Source of the DNA: Squalus acanthias
Taxonomy: Eukaryota
Direction of reading: 5' to 3'
DNA: 64,000 bases
NCBI GenBank assembly: GCA_030390025.1
Contig: CM059432.1
Span: 29,328,001-29,392,000 of the forward strand
Under the pieces are notes generated by a model that saw only the letters and a program-made list of their open reading frames with translations, ran no database searches and was not told the DNA's origin. Made by a program: the position numbers and the translations under genes. Shown here in pieces: positions 1-57,500 of the stretch (within the stretch, counting starts at the first letter, position 1; each line of letters starts with the position of its first letter).

Positions 1-215
1 AATATCATCTCTCAATGTACAAAATATTATCACTCAATGTTCAAAATATCATCTTTAAATGGTCAAAATATCATCTCTTAATGTTCACAATATCATTTCT
101 AAATGTTGAAAATATCATCTCTCAATGTTAAAAATATCATCACTCAATATTCAAAACATCATCTCTCAAAGTTCACAACATCATCTCTCAATGTTCAAAA
201 TATCATCTCTCAATG

Positions 216-904
216 GGTATTGGTGAGACCGCACCTGGAGTACTGCATACAGTTTTGGTGTCCATACTTAAGAAAAGACATACTTGCTCTCGAGGCAGTA
301 CAAAGAAGGTTCACTCGGTTAATTCCGGGGATGAGGGAGTGGACATACGAGGAGAGATTGAGTAGATTGGGACTCTACTCATTGGAGTTCAGAAGAATGA
401 GAGGCGATCTTATTGAAACATATAAGATTGTGAAGGGGCTTGATCGGGTGGGCGTGGTGAGGATGTTCCCAATGATGGGTGAAACTAGAACTAGGGGACA
501 TAATCTTAGAATAAGGGGCTCCTCTTTCAAAACTGAGATGAGGAGAAACTTTTTCACTCAGAGGGTAGTGGGTCTGTGGAATTTGCTACCCCAGGAAGCT
601 GTGGAAGCTACTTCATTAAATAAATTTAAAACAGAAATAGACCGTTTCCTAGAAGTAAAGGGAATCAGGGGTTACGGGGAGCGGGCTGGAAATTGGACAT
701 GAGTTTGAGTTCGGATCGGTCAAGGCCCTGTGGGTGGTGGAGCGGGCCCAGGGACTGAGTGGCCTGGTCCTTCTCCTGCTTCTTGTGTTCTTTAGAGTTG
801 AGGTTGGACCAGATCAGCCATGATCTCATTGAATGGCGGAGCAGGCTCGAGGGGCCGATTGGTCTACTCCTGCTCCTATTTCTTATGTTCTTATGATCTT
901 ATGT
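216..904 (+). mobile_element. 5'-truncated CR1-clade LINE (ORF2 C-terminus, 3' UTR, TCTTATGT tail), copy 1
   Basis: Translation LVRPHLEYCIQFWCPYLRKDI...LERLGLYSLE-like (LSRLGLYSLEFRRMRGDLIETYK)...RTRGH...FFTQRVVGLWN is the typical CR1 ORF2 end; stop at 702. Octamer tail at 881-904. AATG on both sides (212-215, 905-908) is a candidate TSD. Confidence 0.93.
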
Positions 905-6900: not shown

Positions 6901-9900
6901 AATATCATCTCTCAATGTTCAAAATATCATCTCTCAATGTTCAAAATATCATCTCTCAATGTTCAAAATATCATCTCTCAATGTTCAAAATATCATCACT
7001 CAATGTTCAAAATATCATCTCTCAATCTGTTAAAACTCTCATCTCTCAATCTGTTCAATATCTCAGCACTCAATATTCAAAATAACATCACTCAATGTTC
7101 AAAATATCATCAATGTGGAAAATATCATCAATATTCAAAATAACATCTCTCCATGTTCAAAATATCATCAACGTTCAAAATATCGTCTCTCAATGTTCAA
7201 AATGTCATCTCTCAATGTTCAAAATATCCTCAATGATCAAAATATCATCGCTCAATGTTCACAATATCATCAATTTTCCAAATATCATCTCTCAATGTTC
7301 AAAATATCATCAAAGTTCAAAATATCATCTCTCAATGTTCAAAATATCAACTCCTTAATGTTCACAATATCATCTCTCAATGTTGAAAATATCATCTCTG
7401 AATGTTCAAAATATCATCTCTCAATGTTCAAAAAATCATCAATGTTCAAAATATCATCTCACAGTGTTCAAAATTTCATCTCTCAATGTACAAAATATTA
7501 TCACTCAATGTTCAAAATATCATCTTTAAATGGTGAAAATATCATCTCTTAATGTTCACTATCATTTCTCAATGTTGAAAATATCATCTCTCAATGTTCA
7601 AAATATCATCACTCAATGTTAAAAATATCATCTCTCAAAGTTCACAACATCATCTCTCAATGTTCAAAATATCATCTCTCAATGTTCAAAATGTGATCTC
7701 TCAATCTTCACAATATCATCTCTCAATGTTGAAAATATCATCTTTAAATGTTCAAAATGTCATCTCTTAATGTTCACAATATCATCTCTCAATGTTCCAA
7801 ATATCATATCTCAATGTTCACAATATCTTCTCTCAATGTTCAAAATATCATCAATGTTCAAAATATCATCTCTCAGTGTTCAAAATAGCATAAATGTTCA
7901 AAATAACATCAATGTTAAAAATATCATCTTTCAATGTTCACAATATCATCTCTCAATGTTCAAAATATCATCAATGTTCAAAATGCCATCTCGCAAGGTT
8001 CAAAATATCATCAATGTACAAAATATCATCTGTCAATGTTCAAAATATCATCAATGTTCAAAATATCATCATTGTTCAAAATATCATCACTCTGTTCAAA
8101 ATATCATCTCTCAATGTCCAAAACATCATCTCTCAATGTTCAAAACATCATCTCTCAAAGTTCACAATATCATCTCTCAATGTTCAAAATGTGATCTCTC
8201 AATGTTCAAAATATCATCTCTCAATGTTCAAAATATCATATCTCAATGTTCACAATATCATCACTCAATGTTCAAAATATCATCTCTCAATCTGTTAAAA
8301 CTCTCATCTTTCAATCTGTTCAAAATCTCAGCACTCAATATTCAAAATAACATCACTCAATGTTCAAAATATCATCTCTCAATGTTCAAAATATCATCAA
8401 TGTGGAAAATATCATCAATATTCAAAATAACATCTCTCAATGTTCAAAATATCATCAACGTTCAAAATATCATCTCTCAATATTCAAAATATCATCTCTC
8501 AATGTTCAAAATATCCTCAATGATCAAAATATCATCGCTCAATGTTCACAATATCATCAATGTTGAAAATATCATCTCTCAATGTTCAAAATATCATCAA
8601 AGTTCAAAATATCATCTCTCAATGTTCAAAATATCATCTCTCAATGTTCAAAATATCAACTCTCAATGTTCAAAATATCATTTCTCAATGTTCAAAATAT
8701 CAACTCCTTAATGTTCACAATATCATTTCTCAATGTTGAAAATATCAACTCTCAATGTTCAAAATGTGATCTCTCAATTTTCAAAATACCATCTCTCAAT
8801 GTTCAAAATATCAACTCCTTAATGTTCACAATATCATTTCTCAATGTTGAAAATATCAACTCTCAATGTTCAAAATATCATCTCTCAATGTTCAAAATAT
8901 CATCTTTCTATGTTCAAAATATCACTCAATGTTCAAAATATCATCAATGTGGAAAATATCATCAATGTTCAAAATATCATCTCTCAATGTTCAAAATATC
9001 ATCAACGTTCAAAATATCATCTCTCAATGTTCAAAATGTTATCTCTCAATGTTCAAAATATCCTCAATGATCAAAATATCATCTCTCAATGTTCACAATA
9101 TAATCAATTTGCAAAATATCATCTCTCAATGTTCAAAATATCATCTCTCAAAGTTCACAATATCATCTCTCAATGTTCAAAATGTGATCTCTCAATGTTC
9201 AAAATATCATCTCTCAATGTTCAAAATATCATCTCTCAATGTTCAAAATATCATCTCTCAATGTTCAAAATATCATCTCTCAATGTTCAAAATATCATCT
9301 CTCAATGTTCACAATATCATCACTCAATGTTCAAAATATCATCTCTCAATCTGTTAAAACGCTCATCTTTCAATCTGTTCAAAATCTCAGCACTCAATAT
9401 TCAAAATAACATCACTCAATGTTCAAAATATCATCTCTCAATGTTCAAAATATCATCAATGTGGAAAATATCATCAATATTCAAAATAACATCTCTCAAT
9501 GTTCAAAATATCATCAACGTTCAAAATATCATCTCTCAATGTTCAAAATGTCATCTCTCAATGTTCAAAATATCCTCAATGATCAAAATATCATCGCTCA
9601 ATGTTCACAATATCATCAATTTTCCAAATATCATCTCTCAATGTTCAAAATATCATCAAAGTTCAAAATATCATCTCTCAATGTTCAAAATATCATCTCT
9701 CAATGTTCACAAATCATCTCGCAATGTTTAAAATATCATCTCTCAATGTTCAAAATATCATCACTCAATGTTCACAATATCATCACTCAATGTTCAATAT
9801 ATCATCAATGTTCAAAATATCATCACTCAATTTTCTAAAATATAATCTTTCAATGTTCAAAATATCATCTCTCAATGTTCAAATTATCATCTCTTAATGT

Positions 9901-12900
9901 TCACATCATCTCTCAATGTTCAAAATATCAACTCTCAATGTTCAAAATGTGATCTCTCAATTTTCAAAATATCATCTCTCAATGTTCAAAATATCAACTC
10001 CTTAATGTTCACAATATCATTTCTCAATGTTGAAAATATCATCTCTCAACGTTCAAAATATCATCTCTCAATGTTCAAAATATCATCTTTCAATGTTCAA
10101 AATATCACTCAATGTTCAAAATATCATCTCTCAATCTGTTAAAAATAACATTACTCAATGTGGAAAATATCATCAATGTTCAAAATATCATCTCTCAATG
10201 TTCAAAATATCATCAACGTTCAAAATATCATCTCTCAATGTTCAAAATGTTATCTCTCAATGTTCAAAATATCCTCAATGATCAAAATATCATCTCTCAA
10301 TGTTCACAATATCATCAATTTGCAAAATATCATCTCTCAATGTTCAAAATATCATCAAAGTTCAAAATATCATCTGTCAATGTTCAAAACATCATCTCTC
10401 AAAGTTCACAATATCATCTCTCAATGTTCAAAATGTGATCTCTCAATGTTCAAAATATCATCTCTCAATGTTCAAAATATCATCTCTCAATGTTCAAAAT
10501 ATCATCTCTCAATGTTCAAAATATCATCTCTCAATGTTCAAAATATCATCTCTCAATGTTCAAAATATCATCACTCAATGTTCAAAATATCATCTCTCAA
10601 TCTGTTAAAACTCTCATCTCTCAATCTGTTCAATATTTCAGCACTCAATATTCAAAATAACATCACTCAATGTTCAAAATATCATCAATGTGGAAAATAT
10701 CATCAATATTCAAAATAACATCTCTCCATGTTCAAAATATCATCAACGTTCAAAATATCGTCTCTCAATGTTCAAAATGTCATCTCTCAATGTTCAAAAT
10801 ATCCTCAATGATCAAAATATCATCGCTCAATGTTCACAATATCATCAATTTTCCAAATATCATCTCTCAATGTTCAAAATATCATCAAAGTTCAAAATAT
10901 CATCTCTCAATGTTCAAAATATCAACTCTCAAGGTTCACAAATCATCTCGCAATGTTTAAAATATCATCTTTCAATGTTCAAAATATCATCACTCAATGT
11001 TCACAATATCATCACTCAATGTTCAATATATCATCAATGTTCAAAATATCATCACTCAATGTTCTAAAATATCATCTTTCAATGTTCAAAATATCATCTC
11101 TCAATGTTCAAATTATCATCTCTTAATGTTCACATCATCTCTCAATGTTCAAAATATCATCTCTCAATGTTCAAAATATCAACTCTCAATGTTCAAAATG
11201 TGATCTCTCAATTTTCAAAATATCATCTCTCAATGTTCAAAATATTAACTCCTTAATGTTCACAATATCATTTCTCAATGTTGAAAATATCATCTCTCAA
11301 CGTTCAAAATATCATCTCTCAATGTTCAAAATATCATCTTTCAATGTTCAAAATATCATCTCTCAATGTTCAAAATATCATCTCTCAATGTTCAAAATAT
11401 CAACTCTCAATGTTCAAAATGTGATCTCTCAATTTTCAAAATATCATCTCTCAATGTTCAAAATATCAACTCCTTAATGTTCACAATATCATTTCTCAAT
11501 GTTGAAAATATCATCTCTCAACGTTCAAAATATCATCTCTCAATGTTCAAAATATCATCTTTCAATGTTCAAAATATCACTCAATGTTCAAAATATCATC
11601 TCTCAATCTGTTAAAAATAACATTACTCAATGTTCAAAATATCATCAATGTGGAAAATATCATCAATGTTCAAAATATCATCTCTCAATGTTCAAAATAT
11701 CATCAACGTTCAAAATATCATCTCTCAATGTTCAAAATGTTATCTCTCAATGTTCAAAATATCCTCAATGATCAAAATATCATCTCTCAATGTTCACAAT
11801 ATCACTCAATTTGCAAAATATCATCTCTCAATGTTCAAAATATCATCTCTCAATGTTCAAAATATCATCTCTCAATGTTCAAAATATCATCAATTTGCAA
11901 AATATCATCTCTCAATGTTCAAAATATCATCAAAGTTCAAAATATCATCTCTCAATGTTCAAAATATCATCTCTCAATGTTCACAATATCATCAATGTTC
12001 AAAATATCGCTCAATGATCAAAATATCAGCTCTCAACGTTCAAAATATCATCAATGTTCAAAATATCATCTCTCAGTGTTCAAAATATCATCTCTCAATG
12101 TACAAAATATCATCTCTCAATGTTCACAATATCATCAATGTTCAAAATAACGCTCAATGATCAAAATATCAGCTCTCAATGTTCAAAATATCATCAATGT
12201 TCAAAATATCATCTCTCAGTGTTCAAAATATCATCTCTCAATCTGTTAAAAATAACATTACTCAATGTTCAAAATATCATCAATGTGGAAAATATCATCA
12301 ATGTTCAAAATATCATCTCTCAATGTTCAAAATATCATCAACGTTCAAAATATCATCTCTCAATGTTCAAAATGTTATCTCTCAATGTTCAAAATATCCT
12401 CAATGATCAAAATATCATCTCTCAATGTTCACAATATCATCAATTTGCAAAATATCATCTCTCAATGTTCAAAATATCATCTCTCAATGTTCAAAATATC
12501 ATCTCTCAATGTTCAAAATATCATCAATTTGCAAAATATCATCTCTCAATGTTCAAAATATCATCAAAGTTCAAAATATCATCTCTCAATGTTCAAAATA
12601 TCATCTCTTAATGTTCACAATATCATCAATGTTCAAAATATCGCTCAATGATCAAAATATCAGCTCTCAATGTTCAAAATATCATCAATGTTCAAAATAT
12701 CATCTCTCAGTGTTCAAAATATCATCTCTCAATGTACAAAATATTATCACTCAATGTTCAAAATATCATCTTTAAATGGTCAAAATATCATCTCTTAATG
12801 TTCACAATATCATTTCTAAATGTTGAAAATATCATCTCTCAATGTTAAAAATATCATCACTCAATATTCAAAACATCATCTCTCAAAGTTCACAACATCA

Positions 12901-12932
12901 TCTCTCAATGTTTAAAATATCATCTCTCAATG

Positions 12933-13621
12933 GGTATTGGTGAGACCGCACCTGGAGTACTGCATACAGTTTTGGTGTCCATACTTAAGAAAAGACATAC
13001 TTGCTCTCGAGGCAGTACAAAGAAGGTTCACTCGGTTAATTCCGGGGATGAGGGAGTGGACATACGAGGAGAGATTGAGTAGATTGGGACTCTACTCATT
13101 GGAGTTCAGAAGAATGAGAGGCGATCTTATTGAAACATATAAGATTGTGAAGGGGCTTGATCGGGTGGGCGTGGTGAGGATGTTCCCAATGATGGGTGAA
13201 ACTAGAACTAGGGGACATAATCTTAGAATAAGGGGCTCCTCTTTCAAAACTGAGATGAGGAGAAACTTTTTCACTCAGAGGGTAGTGGGTCTGTGGAATT
13301 TGCTACCCCAGGAAGCTGTGGAAGCTACTTCATTAAATAAATTTAAAACAGAAATAGACCGTTTCCTAGAAGTAAAGGGAATCAGGGGTTACGGGGAGCG
13401 GGCTGGAAATTGGACATGAGTTTGAGTTCGGATCGGTCAAGGCCCTGTGGGTGGTGGAGCGGGCCCAGGGACTGAGTGGCCTGGTCCTTCTCCTGCTTCT
13501 TGTGTTCTTTAGAGTTGAGGTTGGACCAGATCAGCCATGATCTCATTGAATGGCGGAGCTGGCTCGAGGGGCCGATTGGTCTACTCCTGCTCCTATTTCT
13601 TATGTTCTTATGATCTTATGT
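12933..13621 (+). mobile_element. CR1 LINE 3' fragment, copy 2
   Basis: Same 689 bp, truncation point and flanks as copy 1 (offset 12717). One visible substitution at 13560. Confidence 0.93.
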
Positions 13622-15452
13622 AATGTTCAAAATATGATCTCTCAATGTTCAAAATAACATCTCTCAATGTTGAAAATATCGACTTTAAATGGTCAAAATA
13701 TCAACCCTTAATGTTCACAATATCATCTCTCAATGTTGAAAATATCATCTCTCAATGTTCAAAATATCACATCTCAATGTTCACAATATCATCTCTCAAT
13801 GTTCAAAATATCATCTCTCAATTTTGAAAATATCATCTTTAAACGGTCAAAATATCATCTCTTAATGTTCACAATATCATCTCTCAATGTTGAAAATATC
13901 ATCTCTCAATGTTCAAAATATCATCTCTCAATGTTCAAAATATCATAAATGTTCAAAATATCATCAATGTTAAAAATATCATCTTTAAAATTTCACAATA
14001 TCATCTCTCAATGTTCAAAATATCATCAATCTTCAAAATGCCATCTCGCAAGGTTCAAAATATCATCAATGTACAAAATATCATCTGTCAATGTTCAAAA
14101 TATCATCAATGATCAAAATATCATCATTGTTCAAAATATCATCACTCTGTTCAAAATATCATCTCTCAATGTTCAAAACATCATCTCTCAAAGTTCACAA
14201 TATCATCTCTCAATGTTCAAAATGTGATCTCTCTGTTCAAAATGTCATCTCTCAATGTTCAAAATATCATCTCTCAATGTTCAAAATGTGATCTCTCAAT
14301 GTTCAAAATATCATATCTCAATGTTCACAATATCATCACTCAATGTTCAAAATATCATCACTCAATCTTCAAAATATCATCTCTCAATCTGTTAAAACTC
14401 TCATCTTTCAATCTGTTCAAAATCTCAGAACTCAATATTCAAAATAACATCACTCAATGTTCAAAATATCATCTCTCAATGTTCAAAATATCATCAATGA
14501 GGAAAATATCATCAATGTTCAAAATAACATCTCTCAATGTTCAAAATATCACCAATGTTCAAAATATCATCTATCAATGTTCAAAATGTCATCTCTCAAT
14601 GTTCAAAATATCCTCAATGAGCAAATTATCATCGCTCAATGTTCACAATATCATCAATTTTCCAAATATCATATCTCAATGTTCAAAATATCATCAAAGT
14701 TCAAAATATCATCTCTCCATGTTCAAAATATCATCACTCAATGTTCACAATATCATCTCTCAATGTTCAAAATATCATCTCTTAATGTTCACATCATCAC
14801 TCAATGTACAAAATATCATCTCTCAATGTTCAAAATATCATCTCTCAATGTTCAAAATATCAACTCTCAATGTTCAATATGTGATCTCTCAATTTTCAAA
14901 ATATCATCTCTCAATGTTCAAAATATCATCTGTCAATGTTCACAATATCATTTCTCAATGTTCAAAATATCATCAATGTTCAAAATATCATCACTCAATG
15001 TTCAAAATATCATTTCTCAATGTTCAAAATATCAGCAATGTTAAAAATATCATCACTCTGTTCAAAATATCATCTCTCAATGTTCAAAATATCATCTCTC
15101 AATGTTCAAAATATCATCTCTCAATGTTGAAAACATCATTTCTCAATGTTCAAAACATCATCTCTCAAAGTTCAAAATATCATCTCTCAATGTACAAAAT
15201 ATCATCTCTCAATGTTAAAAATATCATCAATGTTCCAAATATCATCTCTCAATGTACAAAATATTATCACTCAATGTTCAAAATATCATCTTTAAATGGT
15301 CAAAATATCATCTCTTAATGTTCACAATATCATTTCTAAATGTTGAAAATATCATCTCTCAATGTTAAAAATATCATCACTCAATATTCAAAACATCATC
15401 TCTCAAAGTTCACAACATCATCTCTCAATGTTCAAAATATCATCTCTCAATG

Positions 15453-16141
15453 GGTATTGGTGAGACCGCACCTGGAGTACTGCATACAGTTTTGGTGTCC
15501 ATACTTAAGAAAAGACATACTTGCTCTCGAGGCAGTACAAAGAAGGTTCACTCGGTTAATTCCGGGGATGAGGGAGTGGACATACGAGGAGAGATTGAGT
15601 AGATTGGGACTCTACTCATTGGAGTTCAGAAGAATGAGAGGCGATCTTATTGAAACATATAAGATTGTGAAGGGGCTTGATCGGGTGGGCGTGGTGAGGA
15701 TGTTCCCAATGATGGGTGAAACTAGAACTAGGGGACATAATCTTAGAATAAGGGGCTCCTCTTTCAAAACTGAGATGAGGAGAAACTTTTTCACTCAGAG
15801 GGTAGTGGGTCTGTGGAATTTGCTACCCCAGGAAGCTGTGGAAGCTACTTCATTAAATAAATTTAAAACAGAAATAGACCGTTTCCTAGAAGTAAAGGGA
15901 ATCAGGGGTTACGGGGAGCGGGCTGGAAATTGGACATGAGTTTGAGTTCGGATCGGTCAAGGCCCTGTGGGTGGTGGAGCGGGCCCAGGGACTGAGTGGC
16001 CTGGTCCTTCTCCTGCTTCTTGTGTTCTTTAGAGTTGAGGTTGGACCAGATCAGCCATGATCTCATTGAATGGCGGAGCAGGCTCGAGGGGCCGATTGGT
16101 CTACTCCTGCTCCTATTTCTTATGTTCTTATGATCTTATGT
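15453..16141 (+). mobile_element. CR1 LINE 3' fragment, copy 3
   Basis: Apparently identical to copy 1 at offset 15237, including the flanking satellite variants. Confidence 0.93.
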
Positions 16142-19100
16142 AATGTTCAAAATATGATCTCTCAATGTTCAAAATAACATCTCTCAATGTTCAAAATATT
16201 GACTTTAAATGGTCAAAATATCAACCCTTAATGTTCACAATATCATCTCTCAATGTTGAAAATATCATCTCTCAATGTTCAAAATATCACATCTCAATGT
16301 TCACAATATCATCTCTCAATGTTCAAAATATCATCTCTCAATTTTGAAAATATCATCTTTAAACGGTCAAAATATCATCTCTTAATGTTCACAATATCAT
16401 CTCTCAATGTTGAAAATATCATCTCTCAATGTTCAAAATATAATCTCTCAATGTTCAAAATATCATAAATGTTCAAAATATCATCAATGTTAAAAATATC
16501 ATCTTTAAAATTTCACAATATCATCTCTCAATGTTCAAAATATCATCAATCTTCAAAATGCCATCTCGCAAGGTTCAAAATATCATCAATGTACAAAATA
16601 TCATCTGTCAATGTTCAAAATATCATCAATGATCAAAATATCATCATTGTTCAAAATATCATCACTCTGTTCAAAATATCATCTCTCAATGTTCAAAACA
16701 TCATCTCTCAAAGTTCACAATATCATCTCTCAATGTTCAAAATGTGATCTCTCTGTTCAAAATGTCATCTCTCAATGTTCAAAATATCATCTCTCAATGT
16801 TCAAAATATCATCACTCAATCTTCAAAATATCATCTCTCAATCTGTTAAAACTCTCATCTTTCAATCTGTTCAAAATCTCAGAACTCAATATTCAAAATA
16901 ACATCACTCAATGTTCAAAATATCATCTCTCAATGTTCAAAATATCATCAATGAGGAAAATATCATCAATGTTCAAAATAACATCTCTCAATGTTCAAAA
17001 TATCACCAATGTTCAAAATATCATCTATCAATGTTCAAAATGTCATCTCTCAATGTTCAAAATATCCTCAATGAGCAAATTATCATCGCTCAATGTTCAC
17101 AATATCATCAATTTTCCAAATATCATATCTCAATGTTCAAAATATCATCAAAGTTCAAAATATCATCTCTCCATGTTCAAAATATCATCACTCAATGTTC
17201 ACAATATCATCTCTCAATGTTCAAAATATCATCTCTTAATGTTCACATCATCACTCAATGTACAAAATATCATCTCTCAATGTTCAAAATATCATCTCTC
17301 AATGTTCAAAATATCAACTCTCAATGTTCAATATGTGATCTCTCAATTTTCAAAATATCATCTCTCAATGTTCAAAATATCATCTGTCAATGTTCACAAT
17401 ATCATTTCTCAATGTTCAAAATATCATCAATGTTCAAAATATCATCACTCAATGTTCAAAATATCATTTCTCAATGTTCAAAATATCAGCAATGTTAAAA
17501 ATATCATCACTCTGTTCAAAATATCATCTCTCAATGTTCAAAATATCATCTCTCAATGTTCAAAATATCATCTCTCAATGTTGAAAACATCATCTCTCAA
17601 TGTTCAAAACATCATCTCTCAAAGTTCAAAATATCATCTCTCAATGTACAAAATATCATCTCTCAATGTTAAAAATATCATCAATGTTCCAAATATCATC
17701 TCTCAATGTTCAAAATATCATCTCTTAATGTTCACAATATAACTTCACAATATTGATAATATCATCTCTCAATGTTCAAAGTATCATCTCTCAATGTTCA
17801 AAATATCATCTCTCAATGTTCAAAATATCATCAATGTTCTAAATATCATCTCGCAATGTTCAAAATATCATCCATGTTCAAAATATCATCTCGCAATGTT
17901 TGAAATATCATATCTCAATGTTCACAATATCTTCTCTCAATGTTCAAAATATCATCAAAGTTCAAAATGCCATCTCCCAATGTTGAAAATATCAATGTTC
18001 AAAATGCCATCTTGCAATGTTCCAAATATCATCAATGTTCAAAATATTATCTCTCAATGTTCAAAATATCATCAATGTTCAAAATATCATATCTCAATGT
18101 TCAAAATATCAGCAATGTTCAAAATATCATCTCTCAATGTTCAAAATGTGATCTCTCAATTTTCAAAATATCATCACTCAATGTTCAAAATATCATCTCT
18201 CAATTTTCAAAATATCATCTCTCAATGTTCAAAATATTATCACTCAATGTTCAAAATATCATCTTTAAATGGTCAAAATATCATCTCTTAATGTACACAA
18301 CATCATTTCTCAATGTTGAAAATATCATCTCTCAATGTTCAAAATATTATCTCTCCATGTTCAAAATATCTTCTCTCAATGTTCACAACATCATCTCTCA
18401 ATGTTCAAAATGTGAGCTCGCAATTTTCAAAATATCATCTCTCAATGTTGAAAATATCATCTCTCAATGTTCAAAATGCCATCTCGCAATGTTGAAAATA
18501 TCAATGTTCAAAATGCCATCTCGCAATGTTCAAAATATCATCAATGTTCAAAATATCATCTCTCAATGTTCAAAATATCACCTCTCATCGTTCAAAATAT
18601 CCTCAATGTTGTAAATATCATCAATGTTCAAAATATCCTCAAAGTTCAAAATATCATCTCTCAATGTTCAAAATATTATCACTCAAGGTTCAAAATATCA
18701 TCTCTCAATGTTCACAGTATCATCTCTCAATGTTCAAAATATCATCTGTAGAATTCGCAAAATTATCGCGATTTTATAAAAATAAGAAGGAGACATAAAG
18801 TTTCGTATAAACAGCTTTATTTCAGCAGAATGCTGTCAGTTTTCAAAACGGACACAAACAGCCTGTAAAATGTCCGCCACGCCTCGTGGCAGAAAGTTCT
18901 AGACTTTCAGTAGGCAGACAAGATGGCGTTTCAATAAACATTTCAGCAAGATCGGACAGGACTCAGCACATTTGAGATAATGACAAGACATGATGGGTTT
19001 GCATTTTAAACATAAATACTGGAATCGGTCTTCCAGGTGCAAACAAGGGCTATTGTACTGAGCGATCAAGGACCCATCCAAAGACATTAATATGCAAAAT

Positions 19101-19319
19101 CCCCACGGCTCTACGATGAGAGAGCCGTTCGCGGGTACTCACAGCAAGCATTTGGAAGCTCCAAAACCCCTCCAGGGAGACTACTAGCCGGTTCCACAAT
19201 GGGAGAAATATTAACGGGTACTCAGACAGTTACAAGTGTCACCGAAACCCATTAAAGACTGAGATCACCCCATACAAGAAGTTTTGAGCGCCAAAACCTG
19301 ACAAAAGATAGACATTAAG

Positions 19320-19390
19320 ATTGGGCGGGAAAATAGAAATTACAGCACTATAACTGTAAAGTACAACCGTCCATCTCTCTCTTGCTACTC
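19320..19390 (+). promoter_or_regulatory. Candidate LTR core promoter
   Basis: Inverted CCAAT (ATTGG 19320-19324), GC box (GGGCGG 19323-19328), TATA-like TATAAC at 19349 and a CT-rich tract ~25 bp later. A second TATAA lies at ~19661, so the assignment is ambiguous. Confidence 0.3.
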
Positions 19391-19570
19391 TGACTCGCAG
19401 GAAGGCTGCTGAACTCTTATTCTTTTGCCTGACGACTCTGGACTCTGATCCGCTAGGATCAACCTCGTGGCTTGCCGTGAAGATCTGTGGAGAACTGGGC
19501 TGTGAGGCCTGGAGGCAGGCGCACCATCCCGAGGAGTCGGTAAATGGTGTTGGAACCGAAGGCCCGAGAG

Positions 19571-19605
19571 GAGATGAGATGAGATGAAATGAGATGAGAT
19601 GAGAT
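19571..19605. repeat. (GAGAT)n microsatellite inside the LTR
   Basis: Seven units (one GAAAT) in the 5' LTR versus five in the 3' LTR at ~27218-27242. Confidence 0.9.
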
Positions 19606-20392
19606 GAGAAGAAGACTACACATGTCGCCGCGGTTAGTAAGCCCCGACCGCGCCTAAAAATATAAGGACAATTTTCGAATTCTATCGGCTACTCCACAAC
19701 TGGCCCGAGAAGACTATTCTTCGAGTTCTACCGACAACTGGTGTAGGACACAGGAAGACTCTTTTTTTTGAGTAGTATCAGAACTCCGAGGGCAACACAG
19801 ATCTTCATGACAGCAGACGGTCCAGCCTGCTAGCCGGAGCAGAAGTGAGTAAACAAGTGGGGTACAGAGACCCCTGATCAACACGTGGATAGTCAGGTGC
19901 TGCGGTAAAAACATCCGAGCAGAGTTTCGGAATTCTCCGAGTTATCACGAGTGGTGAGCATGAGTCTCGATCCTACAAATCTAGATTAGGACAGGTATTG
20001 ATAGGGGAGGGTTTTATGTTTTAAGGATAATTATAATGTGTGTCCCCTTTTACGATGTGTCGTGCGCTCCTCGTTTCCCTAAACCTAGTTGCATAAATGT
20101 ATGTAAGTTTGTACTGTCATTAATCTGTGCTTATGACATGTATTTCGTAATCTTGAATAATATGCAATAAAGATTTTCCATTTCGCACTATTCAACCGGG
20201 TCTATCTGAGTTTTCTCTGCATTATTGCTCTCGCACCTAAGTCCAGTGTCAGAACCGTAAGGGCGAGTGGGTCGAACCACTCACAGGTGTCTAGTGTTAC
20301 CAGGCTGGCTGGAGACCAGAACAGGCAACAAGGCCTAACCCCGCACTAACACTCAGGCTAAGCACAGAGCCACACGTCACCCCTTACAGATA

Positions 20393-22218
20393 ATGGCGAC
20401 CACAAAGGGACACTGGCAGCGAGAAAATAATGTGTTAGACCCTGGTATGAATGGGCGAAATGTTATGGAAGAGAGAATAGCCGATTATGTTTTTGGAAAA
20501 GTGAATTTGACTAAGAGATGGATAAGTGACCTGCTGGTGGATAAGCGTCCACTAGAGGCAGCCGTGAGGTGGACAGGCAGCAAGGAACATAAAAAAACTG
20601 TAGAGAAAGCGGTCTGGCTGATGTGCTATAAAAGACAAGTCCAGCTTTCGGACCAGGTCATTACAGCGCAGGCAGCTCAGATCAAGGGTTTAGAGGTGGA
20701 AATGGACGAGAAGGTCGCAGGGGGGGCAGCAGCTCATCGCGTCTTTAAATGCGTTGCATCAAGAATGCCAGTTAGTGCCCAACCACTATGAGGCGAAAAT
20801 AGATTACCTCGAGTGCCAGGTCACTGAGGCAAAGTTAAATGAGGGCAGAATAAGGGAACGATGTGCCCGCCTAGCTGCTCAAATAAAAGCCCAGGAAGAG
20901 AGCTTAACGGGGGTTAGGGCGGCATATAAGATGGCCCTCGAGGATAAACATGAGGGGGCCGATCACAGCGTCTGCCAAAGAGAGATAGGGAACCTTAAAG
21001 AGGCCCTGAATAAAGCGCACGGCATGGTGTGCCTTATCAGCCCGTCAGCACACCAGCCGCCGGTGGGTGGGGAATTTCAAAAATCCCTACCGAACAAAGC
21101 AGAGGAGGTATTTGCCACTGTGCCCTCCGCGCCACCCAGCTATTCGGCAACCTGGATAAGGGAGGAAGTGGTAGAAGTAGAGGAAGAGGTCCCCGAGGTA
21201 GTACAGCCCCCTGAAGTAGTAGCGAAGCCGGGACCGTTGTGTCCGGTCACGGGTATCAAAAGGGGCCCGGCCGGAGAAAATGGGGAAGCGGGGAATCTCC
21301 TCAACCAACTTGTGTTGCCTCACAGCTCACACCAGCTGAGGGCTATGATCAGTCACGTACGGAAGCTGGTCCGAGTCAGACGACCCTTCCGTACATTTCA
21401 GGGAGGTAGAGCAGACCGCAGCCATTAACGGCTGCGACGATGGGGAAAAGGCTAGAATGCTGCTGTTCTCCTTAGACAGCTCGATCCTCCAGTGTCTCTC
21501 AGACGCGAGTAAAAGGGGTGATAAGACCTATGAGGAGTTAAGAGATGAGGTCCTAGAAGTGTTGGGGGCGGACGACGAAGGTCCGTTTGTGAGATTGGGA
21601 CAGACTATGCAGATGGAGGGAGAACCCCCGAAGGTTTTCGCCGACAGGCTGTGGCCTGTCTATCAGCGTAGCTGCCCAGGTGCGCCAGCGCGCGACGATC
21701 TGGACGGTGTCGGTTTAGCTCATTGGCTCAGATGTATAGTAGCCAACAGCTTGCCAGCCGTGAGGGAGCAGGCCAAAGCGTGGTTTGATCCCACTAACCC
21801 CGCCAAAACAGAGGAGTCGGTCCTAAATCGACTCACGGTCGGGTACCGTAATACCAGGAGTACGGGAGCACGTCCCCTTAAGGGAAAGGTGCATGAGGCG
21901 CGGCCCACAGCCCCGGCTCAAAAGGAGTGGCATCAGGAGGGAAATCGCGTCCCACAGGCCAGTAATGCTTGTTTCGGATGCGGAAAGACAGGGCACTGGC
22001 GCAAGAACTGCAGGAATCCTTGGAAGGAGTCCAGGGATAAAAATCCCGCAGTCCAAGCCCAGGCGCCTGTCTCTGATAGGGGAGCTGGTGTGCCTATCCA
22101 TCCCGATGCGATCGAATCAATGTTGGGAGCCATGCGCACCCTCATGATTTCGCAAGGAAGGGTGGCAGTCGCTACCGGCCCCGCAGATGCCGCAGCCCCG
22201 TCCAACAGTACCCAATGA
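20393..22218 (+). pseudogene. gag: Gag-like polyprotein (~580-607 aa), broken by two single-base insertions
   Basis: ORFs 20393-20791, 20754-21428 and 21457-22218 join if one G is removed in the G7 run (20720-20726) and one at ~21369. Features: N-terminal coiled coil, PSAPPSY (21123-21143), capsid-like DPSVHFREVE...EKARMLL and MHR-like QMEGEPPKVFADRL, and CFGCGKTGHWRKNC (21970-22011). The true start may be ATG 20447 or 20465 because 20393 overlaps the PBS. Confidence 0.88.
20394..20411 (+). promoter_or_regulatory. Primer-binding site, tRNA-Arg type
   Basis: TGGCGACCACAAAGGGAC lies 5 nt after the LTR. It matches the complement of the vertebrate tRNA-Arg(TCG) 3' end (TGGCGACCACGAAGGGAC, recalled from memory) at 17/18 positions. 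Confidence 0.8.
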
Positions 22219-22222
22219 CTAG
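22213..22222 (+). promoter_or_regulatory. Putative stop-codon readthrough signal CAA-TGA-CTAG
   Basis: The Gag stop TGA (22216-22218) is followed by CTAG, an established leaky-stop context, and by 231 in-frame sense codons. Confidence 0.75.
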
Positions 22223-23297
22223 AGCCCGCGCAGCCTGCCTACCTGTGTCCCTTTAAAAGACATGCACAGGAGGGGGTCTCCTGTAAGGAGGCCAGGTTAA
22301 AAGAGCAGGCCTTACGGGAGGAGAACGCCCGCTTAATGGGGAAAATAGATGGGCTAGAAGCGCAGCTTAGAGACATAAAAGCAGCCTACAGGGTAGCCAG
22401 GAGCAGGGAGTATGAGGATTTAAAACAGAATAGAAATCTGCAGCCTCCAGCAGGTGAGATTTCACAGAATGCACAAGCAGGGGCGGTGGCCTGTGTTAGG
22501 GGAGGGGCCAAACCTGCGAGTGGGGACTCGCAGCCCCGGGTAGGCCCACAGGGCACACAGGCAGGCAAAGCAGCTTGCATCAGGGGAGAGGACATCCTAG
22601 CAAAATGTAGGATCCTTTATTTGGGTTGGGAGTCAGATGAGGAAGAGTTCGAGGAGCTCGACCAAGATAGTGACACAAGCGAAGAGGAGCTGGAATCGGA
22701 GGACGAAAGGGTCGCCCCCGATTCAGGTAAAGGGGAGACAGGGGCTGCAGATAGAGATCCACACAGGGTGGAAGCCGAAGCTGCAGGTCCCGAACGCAGG
22801 GGGGCGGAGCTAGGCGAGGCGGAGCCAGCCGCTGTGGTGGGACCACAGGGCGTGGCGATGGAAGCCTCAGAGCCCGAGCCGCCCGCCTTGAACGTCTTGC
22901 CTCGAATGAGGTAGGGACTGCAAGTGAAGGGCCGCCTACTGGGCCAAGTAGGGCGGTGCCACAAGCTGCAGATCCCGAGTTCAGGGAGGCGGAGTCAGGG
23001 GAGGCGGAGCCAGCGACTGTGGTGGGACCACAGGTCGCCACGGTGGAAGTCTCGGAACCCGGTCCGTCAGTCCTGGAGTTCCTGCCCCCGGTAGTTCCCC
23101 GTAGGTCAAGTCGGAAACCCCAGCCCAGAAAGATGTGGGTAAGTCCCCCGTATGTCCCTAGGCATAGGTCCAGGGCTAAGGCAGCCCAGGGAGAGCCCAG
23201 TCACAGCGCAGCAGCAACAGGCTGCGGCAGACCAAAGGGAGGGGTCAATGCCCTCCCACCATTGGGAGAAGCCTGCGGCAGCAACCGCAGAATTTGA
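22219..23297 (+). CDS. Gag-frame extension in the pol position (coiled coil, acidic/Pro-rich repeats, basic tail); one frameshift at ~22900
   Basis: Open in the gag frame from 22219 to 22914. A -1 shift near 22900 continues into the frame of ORF 22956-23297, which carries the second copy of the same peptide repeat. No protease, RT, RNase H or integrase motif seen. Confidence 0.6.
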
Positions 23298-23587
23298 GTA
23301 GGCCGCCCTGGGAACGGGCGGCACTGTACAGTTATAAGATAAGTGATAAGTTTATAAGTTTATAAGTTCAAGTTTATAGTTTTAAATCAGGTTAAGTTTG
23401 TAGTTTAATTTTAACAGAAAATGGTAAAATGATGGGAGTTTTAGAGATAGGAATAGTTAAAGTCTATCCAGCGCACATGTCTTCTTACGTGAGGCGAGGT
23501 CAGGGGACCCGCTCACCCTTCACAAAAGCCAGAGACTCTTGGGAGGCTGGCTACCTCATTCTATCTGATCACAGGAACCAAGGAAGG

Positions 23588-25939
23588 ATGGAACGGATTC
23601 TGGTAGTGCTCGCGGCAATCGGATGTGGACTGGCCTATCGAGGCCGCACCAAGGATGTCGTGGTGTTTGGATGCTCCGGGGACACGGCCCCCATCACGGT
23701 GGATGGGACCGGAAGGCGAGAGGCTGAGGAGACCGCCACCTACTTCCACAAGGGAAGGTGGCCAGGATGGCTGGGAACGAATTCAACTGAATATTCCAGT
23801 ACATCGGGATTTGCCTATAAAGAGACTTCTTTAATGTGCCCCAAAGTGAGGATCATCGCACCCAGAGTCAGCGTCACCGTCGGCAAATGGATTTGTTTGA
23901 CTTGTAATGGGAATGTCCCATTGAGCCGATGGTGGTGGCTACGAAAGCTGAGCAAAAACATGAGGAACTCTTCGGTCGAGTGGGAGCGACTGGGTAATAA
24001 TACCCATCGGACAATTACGGGGACTTACGGACAATTGAGAGTCTGTTGGGACAAATGGTGGGAACCGGATGAGGGAATTTATGTATGTATGTGGGGGTCA
24101 AAGCACGTTTGCCCCAAAGGCATCTCCATATTTTTCATCAATCAGTGGCAGGATAATGGGAAAGGGATGAGGTGGGATGCAAGCACCAGGGGGTGCGGGG
24201 CTCCATACTCTCTGATCCCGGTAAATGCCACTGAACTCATTACGCGCCCACGCAAGGCCCCACCCACAATTCCGGTGGTTCTAGCTAAGGAAGAAGGGTG
24301 CCCAAAAAGCAGTAAGGGACCCGGGAATGGTTTGGTACTGGTCCCTACAGACCAGCTATTATTTCAGGGGGTACATTATGCGGTGGCCTCAGTGATTTTA
24401 AACCTCACCGAGGTGCGGTTGCCGGAGTGGTGCCCCAAAGAGACGGAACGGTTATATCAGGTCCTGTTGACCAAGATGTTTAGGCAATTTTATGAGTTCG
24501 ATTTCGCGGAAATTGATAAAACAAGTTTGTACACCGCACCACATGAAGTTTTGGGTCAGGTGGGGAGACAAAGAAGGGGTGTTGTGAACGACATGTTCAC
24601 TGCTTTCAATACAGGTACATCTGTGGTCAACGCTCTAGACAGCGTGGAGCTGCAGACCCAGATTAATGGTTTGAAAACTTAATTAAAGGATATTCTTACA
24701 GACGAAAATAAGGTGGTTGGGTCTGGGTTACATGAGGACCAGGCCATGACTCTCCATTTAAAAGAAATCATAGCTGAACTAGAGAAACATGCGCGTACGG
24801 TAAATGCCCTGATCAGGGAAGATCGGAATGCGTCCGATCAGGCTGTGCAGAATGAGGTGTGCGTGCTTTATGGGGCGTGGTTACTGGGCGAGGGCCGCAG
24901 TAATTTGGAGGATTTAAAACAAGGTTTGGTCCCGTCCTGGATAAGTAACAAACACCTGCAGGCGCTCCACCCTTTTCAGAACGCATTAAGTCCGTGCCAG
25001 CTCAGGCTAGCTTCAGAAGCATACCCAGTCCCCGTGGACTGCGGACGATCAAACCACACCATTATGGGTGTAGTTTTACGTATGCCGGTTTTGGGCGACA
25101 CAGCAAAGCCCGCCCCGGTATATCGGGTAGAGAACATTGGTGTCATTCAGGGGGGAGCCCACATTCGCTATGCAGCGGTTCCACCTTACGTCATCCGCTG
25201 GGAGCAAACGATGACAGGTACAGATCTCTCTGGTTGTCGTAGCTGGGGAGCACACATAATCCTGTGTCCCCAGCACTTGAATGCCTTTTTAACACCACAG
25301 TGCGGGTTCAGAACGGCTGGCGCCAAGCCCATGAATTGCACCATGGAGGCAATGGCACAAGATCATGTGCCTCTGCAGGTAGCATACATCGGGGGTGGAA
25401 CATATTGTGTTACCACTGCAGCGCAACACTACCAGCATGGAAACCGGAGCCGGTGTCCGGTGAGTGACAGCAGTTTTTGTTTTAAACCCAGGGCTGAAGT
25501 TCAAGTGGCACAGCAGCGAATTGTCCCGATCCCTGAACCATCCACTGTTCATCTTACAGTAAAAGAGAACTTCACCGACTTGCAGCGATTCGTCGCGCAT
25601 TTCGGATACCTCATTCCCCCTCTCCCTGAACACCTCACCAAGCTTTTGAAAGCCGTCGCGGTATCGCAAAAACATTTTTACACCCTAGAACAAAAGACTG
25701 TCGAGATAGGGACAGAAATTCTAGACATAGTAATTCCACCGTGGTGGGATCTGTTCACCAACATTGAAGTGCCTTCCTGGATTAGAATAGCCTCCCACAT
25801 TTTAGTTGTATGCCAAGTGTTTATTGTGATATACTTATTGGTCGTGCATTGTAAGAGAGGCAAACGCCTCACCAAGAACGAAAACACGGGAGAGTGGCGA
25901 GAGCGTTACGTGCGCGTGCACGAAGAAAGCACCGCGTAA
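23588..25939 (+). pseudogene. env: Env-like class I fusion glycoprotein (783 codons) with one in-frame stop (TAA 24680-24682)
   Basis: ATG in AGGATGG context 14 nt after an acceptor-like pyrimidine tract/CAG (23574). Signal peptide MERILVVLAAIGCGLA, furin site RQRR (24566-24577), fusion-peptide-like GVVNDMFTAFNTG, heptad region, Cys-rich core, about ten N-glycosylation sequons, Trp-rich membrane-proximal region, TM helix (~25787-25851) and a YVRV tail. ORFs 23429-24682 and 24713-25939 share a frame. Confidence 0.88.
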
Positions 25940-26381
25940 ACAGACAAAATGGCGTCACTCCAGTTTTTTCCACGTGCGCCTCGGAATTGTTGTAATCGAT
26001 CGTGATTTTTTTCTCAGAAACTGTAATTAAGTTTGGAACTCTACATGTTTAAGAGTTGGTTTTGATTATTTTGGTTTGGTGTTGTTGAATATGGTTGTTT
26101 GGTTGTATTTTTTTGGTTTTCTTTTTCCTTGAATAAAAAAAATATGCATATGCAGGTGGTGCGAGAGGCATCGGCCTGGTTACACCTGGAAGGAAATACA
26201 CGCGGTGTAAGTTGAAGGCAAATGCTGCCTACGGTGTTATAAGGATGTCATTTTCCTGGGAAATAAGGACGACACGGAGACCCTAGATAGTTTTAAGTTA
26301 TGGGAATTTTTGGATATAGAGAATCGAGATAATATTGCTCACCACAATGTTTCTGATACGATAAGCGGAGTTATTCGCATC

Positions 26382-26393
26382 AACAGGAGGGAC
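26382..26393 (+). promoter_or_regulatory. Polypurine tract
   Basis: AACAGGAGGGAC immediately before the TG of the 3' LTR. Confidence 0.75.
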
Positions 26394-28024
26394 TGTAGAA
26401 TTCGCAAAATTATCGCGATTTTATAAAAATAAGAAGGAGACATAAAGTTTCGTATAAACAGCTTTATTTCAGCAGAATGCTGTCAGGTTTCAAAACGGAC
26501 ACAAACAGCCTGTAAAATGGCCGCCACGCCTCGTGGCAGAAAGTTCTAGACTTTCAGTAGGCAGACAAGATGGCGTTTCAATAAACATTTCAGCAAGATC
26601 GGACAGGACTCAGCACATTTGAGATAATGACAAGACATGATGGGTTTGCATTTTAAACATAAATACTGGAATCGGCCTTCCAGGTGCAAACAAGGGCTAT
26701 TGTACTGAGCGATCAAGGACCCATCCAAAGACATTAATATGCAAAATCCCCACGGCTCTACGATGAGAGAGCCATTCGCAGGTACTCACAGCAAGCATTT
26801 GGAAGCTCCAAAACCCCTCCAGGGAGACTACTAGCCGGTTCCACAATGGGAGAAATATTAACGGGTACTCAGACAGTTACAAGTGTCACCGAAACCCATT
26901 AAAGACTGAGATCACCCCATACAAGAAGTTTTGAGCGCCAAAACCTGACAAAAGATAGACATTAAGATTGGGCGGGAAAATAGGAATTACAGCACTATAA
27001 CTGTAAAGTACAACCGTCCATCTCTCTCTTGCTGGTCTGACTTGCTGGAAGGCTGCTGAACTCTTATTCTTTTGCCTGACGACTCTGGACTCTGATCCGC
27101 TAGGATCAACCTCGTGGCTTGCCGCGAAGATCTGTGGAGAACTGGGCTGTGAGGCCTGGAGGCGGGCGCACCATCCCGAGGAGTCGGTAAACGGTGTTGG
27201 AACCGAAGGCCCGAGAGGAGATGAGATGAGATGAGATGAGATGAGAAGAAGACTACACGTGTCGCCGCAGTTAGTAAGCCCCGACCGCGCCTAAAAATAT
27301 AAGGACCATTTTCGAATTCTATCGGCTACTCCACAACTGGCCCGAGAAGACTATTCTTCGAGTTCTACCGACAACTGGTGTAGGACACAGGAAGACTCTT
27401 TTTTTGAGTAGTATCAGAACTCCGAGGGCAACACAGATCTTCATGACAGCAGACGGTCCAGCCTGCTAGCCGGAGCAGAAGCGAGTAAACAAGTGGGGTA
27501 CAGAGACCCCTGATCAACACGTGGATAGTCAGGTGCTGCGGTAAAAACATCCGAGCAGAGTTTCGGAATTCTCCGAGTTATCACGAGTGGTGAGCATGAG
27601 TCTCGATCCTACAAATCTAGATTAGGACAGGTATTGATAGGGGAGGGTTTTATGTTTTAAGGATAATTATAATGTGTGCCCCCTTTTACGATGTGTCGTG
27701 CGCTCCTCGTTTCCCTAAACCTAGTTGCATAAATGTATGTAAGTTTGTACTGTCATTAATCTGTGCTTATGACATGTATTTCGTAATCTTGAATAATATG
27801 CAATAAAGATTTTCCATTTCGCACTATTCAACTGGGTCTATCTGAGTTTTCTCTGCATTATTGCTCTCGCACCTAAGTCCAGTGTCAGAACCGTAAGGGC
27901 GAGTGGGTCGAACCACTCACAGGTGTCTAGTGTTACCAGGCTGGCTGGAGACCAGAACAGGCAACAAGGCCTAACCCCGCACTAACACTCAGGCTAAGCA
28001 CAGAGCCACACGTCACCCCTTACA
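26394..28024 (+). repeat. 3' LTR (1631 bp)
   Basis: Differs from the 5' LTR by roughly 20 substitutions (counted by eye), two fewer GAGAT units and one fewer T. AATAAA at 27802-27807. Confidence 0.96.
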
Positions 28025-31000
28025 ATCAATGTTCAAAATATCATCTCACAACGTTCACAATATCATCAATGTTCAAAATATCATCTGTCAGTGTTCAAAA
28101 TATCTCTCAATGTAGAAAATATCATCAATATTCAACATATCATCTCTCAATGTTCAAAACTTCAATGTTCAAAATTTCATCGCTCAATTTTCAAAATATC
28201 ATCTCTCAATGTTCAAAATATTATCACTCAATGTTCAAAATATCATCTTTAAATGGTCAAAATATCATCTCTTAATGTTCACAATATAATTTCTCAATAT
28301 TGATAATATCATAACTCAATGTTCAAAATATCAGCAAAGTTCAAAATATCATCTCTAAATGTTCAAAATATCATCTCTCAATGTTCAAAATATCATCACT
28401 CAATGTTCAAAATATCATCTCTCAATTTTCAAAATATCATCTCTCAATGTTCAAAATATTATTACTCAATTTTCAAAATATCATCTTTAAATGGTCAAAA
28501 TATCATCTCTTAATGTACACAATATCATCTCTCAATTTTGAGAACATCATCTCTCAATGTTCAAAATATCATCTCTCAATATATAAAATATCATTTCTCA
28601 ATGTTAAAAATATCATCAATGTTCAAAATATCATCTCTCAATGTTCAAAATAGCATCTCTCAATGTTCAAAATATCATCTCTCAATGTTCAAAAAATCAT
28701 CTCTCAAAGTTCAAAATATCATCTCTCAATGTTCAAAATATCATCTCTCAATTTTCAAAATATCATCTCTCAATGTTCAAAATATTATTACTCAATTTTC
28801 AAAATATCATCTTTAAATGGTCAAAATATCATCTCTTAATGTACACAATATCATTTCTCAATGTTGAAAATATCATCTCTCAATGTTCAAAATATCATCT
28901 CTCCATGTTCAAAATATCATCACTCAATGTTCAAAAAATCATCTCTCAATGTTCAAAATATCATCACTCAATGTTCAAAATATCATCACTCAATTGTTCA
29001 AAATATCATCTCTCAATATTCATAATATCGTCACTCAATGTTCAAAATATCATCTCTCAATGTTTAAAATATCATCAATGTTAAAAATATCATCACTCTG
29101 TTCAAAATATCGTCTCTCAATGTTCAAAATATCATCTCTCAACGTTGAAAACATCATCTCTCAATGTTCAAAATATCATCTCTCAATGTATAAAATATCA
29201 TCTCTCAATGTTAAAAATATCATCAATGTTCCAAATATCATCTCTCAATGTTTAAAATATCATCAATGTTCAAAATATCATCTCTCAATATTCAAAATAT
29301 CATCTCTCATTGTTCAAAATATCCTCAATGTTGTAAATATCATCAATGTTCATATTAGCCTCAAATTTCAAAATATCATCTCTCAATGTTCAAAATATCA
29401 TCAATGTTAAAAATATCATCACTCTGTTCAAAATATCATCACTCAATGTTCAAAATATCATCTCTCAATGTTCAAAATATCATCAATGTTAAAAATATCA
29501 TCACTCTGTTCAAAATATCATCTCTCAATGTTCAAAATATCATCTCTCAATGTTCAAAACATCATCTCTCAAAGTTCAAAATATCATCTCTCAATGTTCA
29601 AAATATCATCTCTCAATGTTAAAAATATCATCAATGTTCCAAATATCATCTCTCAATGTCCAAAATATCATCTCTTAATGTTGACAATATCATTTCTCAA
29701 TATTGATAATATCATATCTCAATGTTCAAAATATCAGCAATGTTCAAAATATCATCTCTCAATGTTCAAAATATCATCTCTCAATGTTCAAAATATCATC
29801 TCTCAATGTTCAAAATATTCTTACTCAATTTTCAATATATCATCTTTAAATGGTCAAAATATCATCTCTTAATGTACACAATATCATTTCTCAATGTTGA
29901 AAATATCATCTCTCAATGTTCAAAATATCATCACTCAATGTTCAAAATATCATCTCTCAATGTTCAAAATATCATCTCTCCATGTTCAAAATATCATCAC
30001 TCAATGTTCAAAAAATCATCTCTCAATGTTCAAAATATCATCACTCAATTGTTCAAAATATCATCTCTCAATTTTCATAATATCGTCACTCAATGTTCAA
30101 AATATCATCTCTCAATGTTCAAAATATCATCAATGTTAAAAATATCATCACTCTGTTCAAAATATCATCTCTCAATGTTCAAAATATCATCTCTCAATGT
30201 TGAGATCATCATCTCTCAATGTTCAAAATATCATCTCTCAATGTTAAAAATATCATCAATGTTCAAAATATCATCTCTCAATGTTCAAAATAGCATCTCT
30301 TACTGTTCACAATATCATTTCTCAATGTTAAAAATATCATCAATGCTCAAAATATCATCTCTCAATGTTTAAAATATCATCAATGTTCAAAATATCTTCT
30401 CTCAATATTCAAAATATCATCTCTCATTGTTCAAAATATCATCTCTCAATGGTGAAAACATCATCTCTCAATGTTCAAAACATCATCTCTCAAAGTTGAA
30501 AATATCATCTCTCAATGTACAAAATATCATCTCTCAATGTTAAAAATATCATCAATATTCCAAATATCATCTCTCAATGGTCAAAATATTATCAATGTTC
30601 AAAATATCATCAATGTTCAAAATATCATCTTTCAATGTTCACAATATCATTTCTCAATGTTGAAAATATCATCTCCCAATGTTCAAAATATCATCTCTCC
30701 ATGTTCAAAATATCATCACTCAATGTTCAAAAAATCATCTCTCAATGTTCAAAATATCATCACTCAATGTTCAAAATATCATCACTCAATTGTTCAAAAT
30801 ATCATCTCTCAATGTTCATAATATCGTCACTCAATGTTCAAAATATCATCTCTCAATGTTCAAAATATCATCTCTCAATGTTGAGATCATCATCTCTCAA
30901 TGTTCAAAATATCATCTCTCAATGTTAAAAATATCATCAATGTTCAAAATATCATCTCTCAATGTTCAAAATAGCATCTCTTACTGTTCACAATATCATT

Positions 31001-54923: not shown

Positions 54924-54989
54924 CTGTTTCTCTCTCCACAGATGCTGCCTGACCTGCTGAGTATTTCCAGCATTTTCTGTTTTTATTTC

Positions 54990-57456: not shown

Positions 57457-57500
57457 GTAGAGGGGATTTCAACTCCTGGACGATTGGCCAGCAGAACTCT

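Follow-up and report, generated by a model that had tools for sequence, protein, structure and literature searches.

The gag gene of a 9.3-kb provirus from Squalus acanthias ends at a UGA-CUA junction that appears to be common to lokiretroviruses and to have been kept here in an enzyme-less, env-bearing family. The element lies inside a 22-bp satellite within the window analysed, a stretch of 64,000 nucleotides (contig CM059432.1 of assembly GCA_030390025.1, forward-strand positions 29,328,001 to 29,392,000; coordinates below count from its first letter), and its genes follow the order gag, X, env, where X is the open reading frame (ORF) behind the gag stop. Our preferred explanation, which we hold tentatively, is that a helper-dependent family has inherited this junction as a gag-pol readthrough switch and that the X frame is kept mainly for the effect in cis of being translated. 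In this scheme, a lokiretrovirus-like ancestor would have read from gag into pol through TGA-CTAG, and the family would have lost the enzyme domains and retained the leaky stop. In unbroken copies, Gag would be the main product, with Gag-X at a few percent; the passage of ribosomes through X would act in cis on the RNA of the element, stabilising it by escape from nonsense-mediated decay (NMD) or giving it preference; and mobilisation would presumably depend on a pol-bearing helper. Readthrough at TGA-CTAG is probable; selection for an open X frame is somewhat favoured; and, given such selection, its main target is as likely as not to be the effect in cis of translation, as against a function of the protein.

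All parts of the motif, CAA (22213-15), TGA (22216-18) and CTAG (22219-22), are present on the + strand at the end of gag. The reading frame 3' of TGA contains 231 sense codons and is closed by TAG at 22912-14, and a second open frame, 22755-23297, overlaps it; joined at a break near 22900, the two frames give 227 + 132 = 359 codons. These counts agree with the initial annotation of this stretch, which had described TGA-CTAG followed by 231 in-frame codons, or ~360 after repair of a frameshift. The chance of a 231-codon stop-free run at the local base composition is ~2.5e-4, and the other two forward frames of 22219-23294 contain 19 and 13 stops. The annotation's view of UGA-CUAG as a leaky context is in line with the literature, in which it is a recognised readthrough motif (PMC4132726, PMC13517186; here and below, published statements refer to passages of the cited texts). 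Readthrough has been measured for four vertebrate genes whose stop stands in the UGA-CUAG context, which is efficient in vertebrate reporter cells (PMC4132726), and type II viral readthrough (UGA-CUA/CGG) is defined by the UGACUA hexamer (PMC13517186). The element carries this hexamer at an in-frame stop with an open frame behind it.

The stop is shared beyond this provirus. All four full-length Gag homologues (P0002, P0003, P0005 and P0006), the most distant of them 46-47% identical, have Gln as their last residue, directly at the alignment column of the window's stop; a fifth retrieved Gag protein, P0004, is a frameshifted 334-aa form. Further copies of the element were sampled as short contigs from four public sequencing runs, X1, X2, X6 and X8 (organisms A and B), which cover all 30 bins of 20600-23400 in 4/4 runs and contain 476 variable places across gag and X. 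The variant analysis rests on the best-supported 40 of these 476 places, and minor variants may lie among the others. No change at 22213-22222 was found among the best 40, and a place in the same bin, 22263, was listed. A private nonsense mutation is unlikely, because such a mutation should appear as a near-fixed row in the comparison of the runs. On the strength of the Gln-ending homologues and the lack of a listed variant at 22213-22222 (best 40 of 476), a stop private to this copy was rejected. By the sequence comparison, TGA-CTAG is the natural gag terminator.

The same junction was found in lokiretroviruses. The consensus set in the supplement of PMC7947760 holds 24 entries, comprising by their headers 7 with a separate gag, 10 with a single gag-pol ORF and 7 with pol only, and we compared the junctions in 8 of the 24 (Bsp, Ofa, Dcl, Lro, Pyo, Sau, Tfu and Pfl). 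Six of the 7 separate-gag entries (Bsp, Ofa, Dcl, Lro, Pyo and Sau) end in TGA, followed in 6/6 by CTA(G/A), and the ten letters of Loki-Sau are identical to 22213-22. The annotated pol is in frame and stop-free after TGA in 5/6 of these entries (hand count); in Bsp, the annotated pol starts in another frame, and the in-frame reading yields a conserved N-terminal segment. Tfu has TGN-CTA-A at its gag end, and Loki-Pfl, which is annotated as a continuous gag-pol ORF, has CGA-CTA-A at the junction. Some continuous gag-pol entries may hide the site, since Pfl has CGA-CTA-A where others have TGA-CTA. The terms “readthrough”, “read-through” and “stop codon” are absent from the main texts of PMC7947760 and PMC9040795, the 2026 review of readthrough, PMC13517186, does not contain “loki”, and “read-through” in PMC12440569 denotes transcriptional read-through. 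No description of a lokiretrovirus UGA-CUA readthrough site was found in the literature searched, outside which most subscription papers lie. Such a junction, common to lokiretroviruses and kept in a family that has lost the enzymes, appears to be new; pol-less families with residual fusion frames are already known.

The junction resembles the Gag-Pol readthrough of gamma- and epsilonretroviruses, in which an in-frame stop likewise follows the Gag knuckle and holds the fusion at a low proportion (PMC13517186), and it shares its hexamer with the type II readthrough of alphaviruses and vertebrate genes (PMC13517186, PMC4132726, PMC3159437). In contrast, the retroviral readthrough stops described in passages of PMC13517186 are UAG-G, UGA-AGA, UGA-CGA and UGA-AGU, none of them UGA-CUA, and the downstream frame here is without enzymes. 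With UGA-CUA(G/A) in frame in distant fish lokiretroviruses and in the shark element, the junction suggests how the sister lineage of all retroviruses expresses Pol; if this is true, a type II signal would join the retroviral recoding repertoire.

The initial annotation had presented X as a non-enzymatic ORF that replaces pol. The enzymes are indeed absent. Pfam finds no enzyme domain in X, including protease and reverse transcriptase (RT), and no significant family for it; tblastn of P0007, a shark protein with RNase H (PF00075) and integrase that its source labels “NYNRIN-like”, detected no integrase or RNase H remnant in the whole element (best E 0.31); there is no RT-sized frame within the element; and the 1.08 kb that separate the gag stop from the env region leave no space for protease plus RT. 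The word “replaces”, by contrast, does not hold, if it is taken to mean foreign sequence, as about three-quarters of X is a retained end of pol and about one-fifth is a divergent duplicate of Gag's coiled coil, which the annotation had missed. From codon 96 onwards, X has a sole match among 1.84 billion proteins, P0001, with identities of 42% and 37-39% in the two portions that flank the break near 22900. P0001 opens with 50 residues (integrase C-terminal domain) that are 78% identical to the integrase end of P0007, and X and P0001 end alike, with a stop 22 codons past a common motif. About three-quarters of X can be assigned to the pol tail, up to its own stop, because of the P0001 match and the homologous stop, and the proposal that the late PRRSSRKPQP motif is a remnant of an integrase tail was confirmed through the matches to P0001 and P0007. 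A duplication (22765-22901 / 22950-23086) lies inside this tail. The first residues of X and the late motif read as the annotation gave them, and part 1 of X, whose first 12 residues it had taken as a potential pol stub, is, from its position, a possible 5' stub of pol.

The coiled coil of X is identical to that of its own Gag at 17/43 residues (40%; E 5e-6). A profile of four natural Gags matched X with an E of 6e-7, and 0/1000 heptad-preserving shuffles scored as high. The distance from the coiled coil to the hydrophobic motif behind it is 33 and 34 aa in X and Gag, respectively, and DNA identity between the two coiled coils is 56/58/40% at codon positions 1/2/3. A complex prediction for the Gag and X coiled coils scored 0.09 and gave no answer. 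The protein search returned no homologue of comparable length for X as a whole, and no relatives with DNA were found among the viral contigs or metagenome contigs searched. Identification of X with the lokiretroviral smc gene was rejected, as smc-labelled entries place smc before gag and the matching coiled coil here lies within Gag. As judged from these matches, X is a patchwork remnant and no new gene. Alternatively, the coiled coil could be a natural spacer opening the helper's pol, with X being a single in-frame deletion of the enzymes, or X could be made apart from Gag via an internal ATG or a spliced RNA. Long spacers do precede the protease in the pol genes of some lokiretroviruses (Dcl, Lro), but these are proline-rich and, by eye, contain no coiled coils (PMC7947760). 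Likewise, an in-frame ATG with G at +4 occurs at 22336, but it lies inside the coiled-coil block of X, where both the open frame and the homology extend further 5'. Even with no pol-bearing relative found for alignment, a point in its favour, we consider this alternative very unlikely.

To return to the inherited switch with a maintained X frame, the length variants among the sampled copies point to a frame that is kept open. Four distinct length variants in X (3, 3, 39 and 69 nt) were found in at least two runs, and 4/4 are multiples of 3, as against 0/3 of those listed in the spacer just behind X (one length hand-counted). Under a naive one-in-three rule, the chance of 4/4 frame-keeping variants is ~0.01, a figure that is weaker because of shared descent and because the listed length variants leave out 13 further rows. 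A variant without the X break near 22900 is listed in 3/4 runs (X2, X6 and X8), variants free of the gag breaks are listed in 4/4, and a contig of run X6 spans the junction of coiled coil and tail. The coiled-coil copy and the integrase tail are both in their native reading frames. With its enzymes lost and many related copies present, the element has the features of a pol-less family with an open residual frame. In other copies, X is lengthened by in-frame tandem duplications, of 69 nt within the coiled coil (22303-22370) and of 39 nt close to the end of the frame (23211-23247).

A benefit of translation itself fits an open frame without visible residue constraint. Readthrough of a few percent shields mRNAs with long 3' untranslated regions from NMD, and an added stop just behind the signal abolishes this protection (PMC5360307); translation of the fusion ORF of 1-delta-1 IAP elements acts in cis (PMC6466679). 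In the element, the gag stop lies 4.2 kb from the 3' long terminal repeat (LTR), and 3.1 kb of untranslated RNA would extend from the end of X to the 3' LTR. Selection on the protein could instead have kept the frame. Gag-X would then be present in particles at a low level, where its extra coiled coil and its acidic tail would aid co-assembly with, or competition for, helper Gag-Pol. A fixed minor ratio would suit such a role, the spacing of the hydrophobic motif is nearly as in Gag, and the in-frame 69-nt duplication of the coiled coil was found in two runs. The coiled-coil copy also diverged in a coding-like manner, as its identities at codon positions 1/2/3 indicate, but this pattern could predate the transfer, having arisen in the donor gag, and the listed substitutions in X are mostly non-synonymous. 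Overall, a selected Gag-X protein seems unlikely. The same low standing is given to a broader proposal, that the lokiretrovirus lineage makes Pol via alphavirus-type UGA-CUA readthrough and that the shark family repurposed the switch to dose a parasite protein (Gag extended by a further coiled coil and the acidic tail) that captures helper machinery. An enzyme-less family that keeps a leaky stop and an open frame would be a natural experiment on whether translation past gag serves a protein or the fate of the RNA, through NMD escape or cis preference.

Several points weigh against the inherited switch with a frame kept for its translation. Synonymous substitutions numbered 3/12 in X and 10/25 in gag, at a random expectation of ~0.29-0.30; this test used 37 of the best 40 rows of 476, with 3 dropped near the breaks, and is weak because most of the rows record changes found in this copy alone. 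The absence of a synonymous excess in X fits a cis effect and fits no selection equally. The eight length variants of X seen in single runs comprise 3 that keep the frame, 3 that break it and 2 across the break, and among the four runs only X1 lists no variant free of the X break. The shark and skate homologues were compared as protein rather than DNA, and none of the public sequencing runs searched that are recorded as RNA contains the stretch, run X8 being RNA by guess alone. A 3' stimulatory structure, which accompanies alphavirus readthrough (PMC3159437), is possible but weak at the junction: a 100-nt window ranks 1/29 (z -2.59), and z was +0.10, -0.34, -1.37, -2.12 and -1.73 for windows of 70, 90, 120, 150 and 185 nt, respectively. 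Protection from NMD would be only partial, because of the 3.1 kb left untranslated after X. Finally, the element, which has no RT, is a putative member of the lokiretroviruses.

Some of these observations would suit a neutral relic, in which the founder deletion merely happened to pass on a readthrough site and an open frame, a helper multiplied both, and any Gag-X is tolerated junk. X shows no synonymous excess, its tail is of low complexity, the present copy spread or persisted with a broken X, some single-run variants break the frame, and multiplication with nothing but gag is known from the zebrafish elements Bik-1 and Bik-2 (bioRxiv 2024.03.25.586437). A relic would not, however, account readily for the recurrent length variants, all frame-keeping in X and none in the spacer, nor for two borrowed pieces both in native frame, for which the chance with random junctions is ~1 in 9, although X was noticed because it is open. 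We regard a neutral relic as somewhat unlikely.

The closest known systems were compared with the element. Lokiretroviruses share with it the LTR-gag-(pol)-env layout, an N-terminal coiled coil in Gag (“smc”), a basic cleavage site in an Env that here is putatively F-like, and the TGA-CTA(G/A) gag end (PMC7947760). In contrast to them, the element has no enzymatic pol, its Gag contains a CCHC knuckle, and a coiled-coil copy follows the stop; of lokiretrovirus pol (protease, RT, tether, RNase H and integrase), just the post-integrase tail is left. The missing pol fits a deleted member of the lokiretroviruses and leaves descent from them possible. The nearest named proteins come from a skate (P0002) and a shark (P0007). 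The host is a cartilaginous fish, a group that is not among the hosts in the abstract of PMC7947760, and passages of PMC10435555 and bioRxiv 2023.10.26.564294 hold nothing on cartilaginous-fish lokiretroviruses. A coiled-coil Gag with a retroviral or Ty3-type capsid was recognised on the skate homologue P0002, a feature that is not family-specific. P0002 is 66% identical to the capsid part of gag, and its model predicts a helix at 67-183 and matches the capsid C-terminal domain of murine leukemia virus (Z 11.8, root-mean-square deviation 2.3, 85 aligned); the model is of low confidence (mean predicted local distance difference test [pLDDT] 48.9), and Foldseek gave no match with E < 0.001. Affinity to the CGIN1/NYNRIN integrases is indirect, running from the X tail through P0001 to P0007. 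The annotation had likened the late motif to the tails of Gypsy integrases; the element resembles a lokiretrovirus, with an env of apparent F type, more than a plain Gypsy element.

The mouse IAP 1-delta-1 element is likewise a non-autonomous endogenous retrovirus, in which the loss of an internal segment has created a novel open frame that fuses gag to pol; it is mobilised by helper proteins, and the fusion acts in cis (PMC6466679). Its fusion is continuous after deletion in gag and pol, whereas here gag is whole, any fusion would depend on a leaky stop, and the element retains env and contains a second version of the Gag coiled coil. The zebrafish Bhikhari elements Bik-1 and Bik-2 (bioRxiv 2024.03.25.586437) are also young, pol-less relatives of lokiretroviruses with a coiled-coil Gag and the need for a partner. 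Bik-1, however, is a single gag ORF, Bik-2 is without pol and env, and a second frame behind a leaky stop does not occur in the passages describing them. Bik-1 Gag contains a glycine-rich patch, where the Gag here has a CCHC knuckle.

The provirus copy in the window is dead, carrying two breaks in gag, the break in X and a stop in env; the features are listed in Table 1. In this copy, translation begun at the gag ATG halts at 20789-91 and never reaches the TGA, because gag is broken near 20720 and 21370. A Gag-X fusion, which the annotation had this element producing at a minor level, is thus not available from this copy; the annotation did not mention the two upstream gag breaks. The insertion is young, since the LTRs differ by 19 mismatches over 1630 aligned columns. 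The gag ATG overlaps the TGG that opens a putative primer-binding site (20393-20411), and the skate homologue P0002 starts with the same eight residues as gag here. The flanks 18739-18746 and 28025-28032 share just three letters beside the LTRs; whether this match is the short target-site duplication of a retrovirus-like element is uncertain, and the surrounding satellite blurs the call.

Table 1. Coordinates of the features of the provirus in the 64,000-nucleotide window.
Feature	Position	Strand	Description
5' LTR	18747..20388	+	TG...CA, 1642 bp, sits in 22-bp satellite
gag	20393..22218	+	N-terminal coiled coil, capsid, CCHC knuckle; three pieces here, breaks near 20720 and 21370
Gln codon + TGA + CTAG	22213..22222	+	type II readthrough context, putative old gag-pol junction
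X part 1	22219..22284	+	22 codons, no homologue found
Possible 3' stimulatory RNA structure	22219..22365	+	weak, varies with window chosen
X part 2	22285..22503	+	~73 codons (23-95), paralogous to Gag coiled coil and the hydrophobic motif after it
X part 3	22504..23297	+	~263 codons from codon 96; acidic, low-complexity post-integrase tail
env	23588..25939	+	hydrophobic N-terminus, RQRR at 24566, hydrophobic C-terminal segment, internal stop 24680-82
Purine-rich tract	26376..26393	+	precedes 3' LTR
3' LTR	26394..28024	+	1631 bp

The env product resembles F-type fusion proteins by language-model features alone. A feature search gave Baculo_F clusters at 0.94-0.96 and Fusion_gly at 0.90, with a recognition value below the mark; no Pfam match and no PDB sequence match were obtained for env, and its single-sequence fold model, with a pLDDT of 35.5, was of too low quality for a structure search. 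The portion before the cleavage site (23588-24565) is long (~325 aa), with many Trp and Cys residues. What looked like another env at 58-63 kb was an artefact of summed tblastx scores and was gone on recheck; this region contains LINE-type RT frames. Several decayed frames lie at 52362-63548, which we take to encode LINE-type reverse transcriptase, and a frame at 60167-61009 resembles, by eye, what is presumably a Harbinger-type transposase. The 22-bp satellite around the provirus is very long (1-18746 and 28026-51500) and has a strong strand skew, and sequence from the start of the window recurs at ~15.2 kb.

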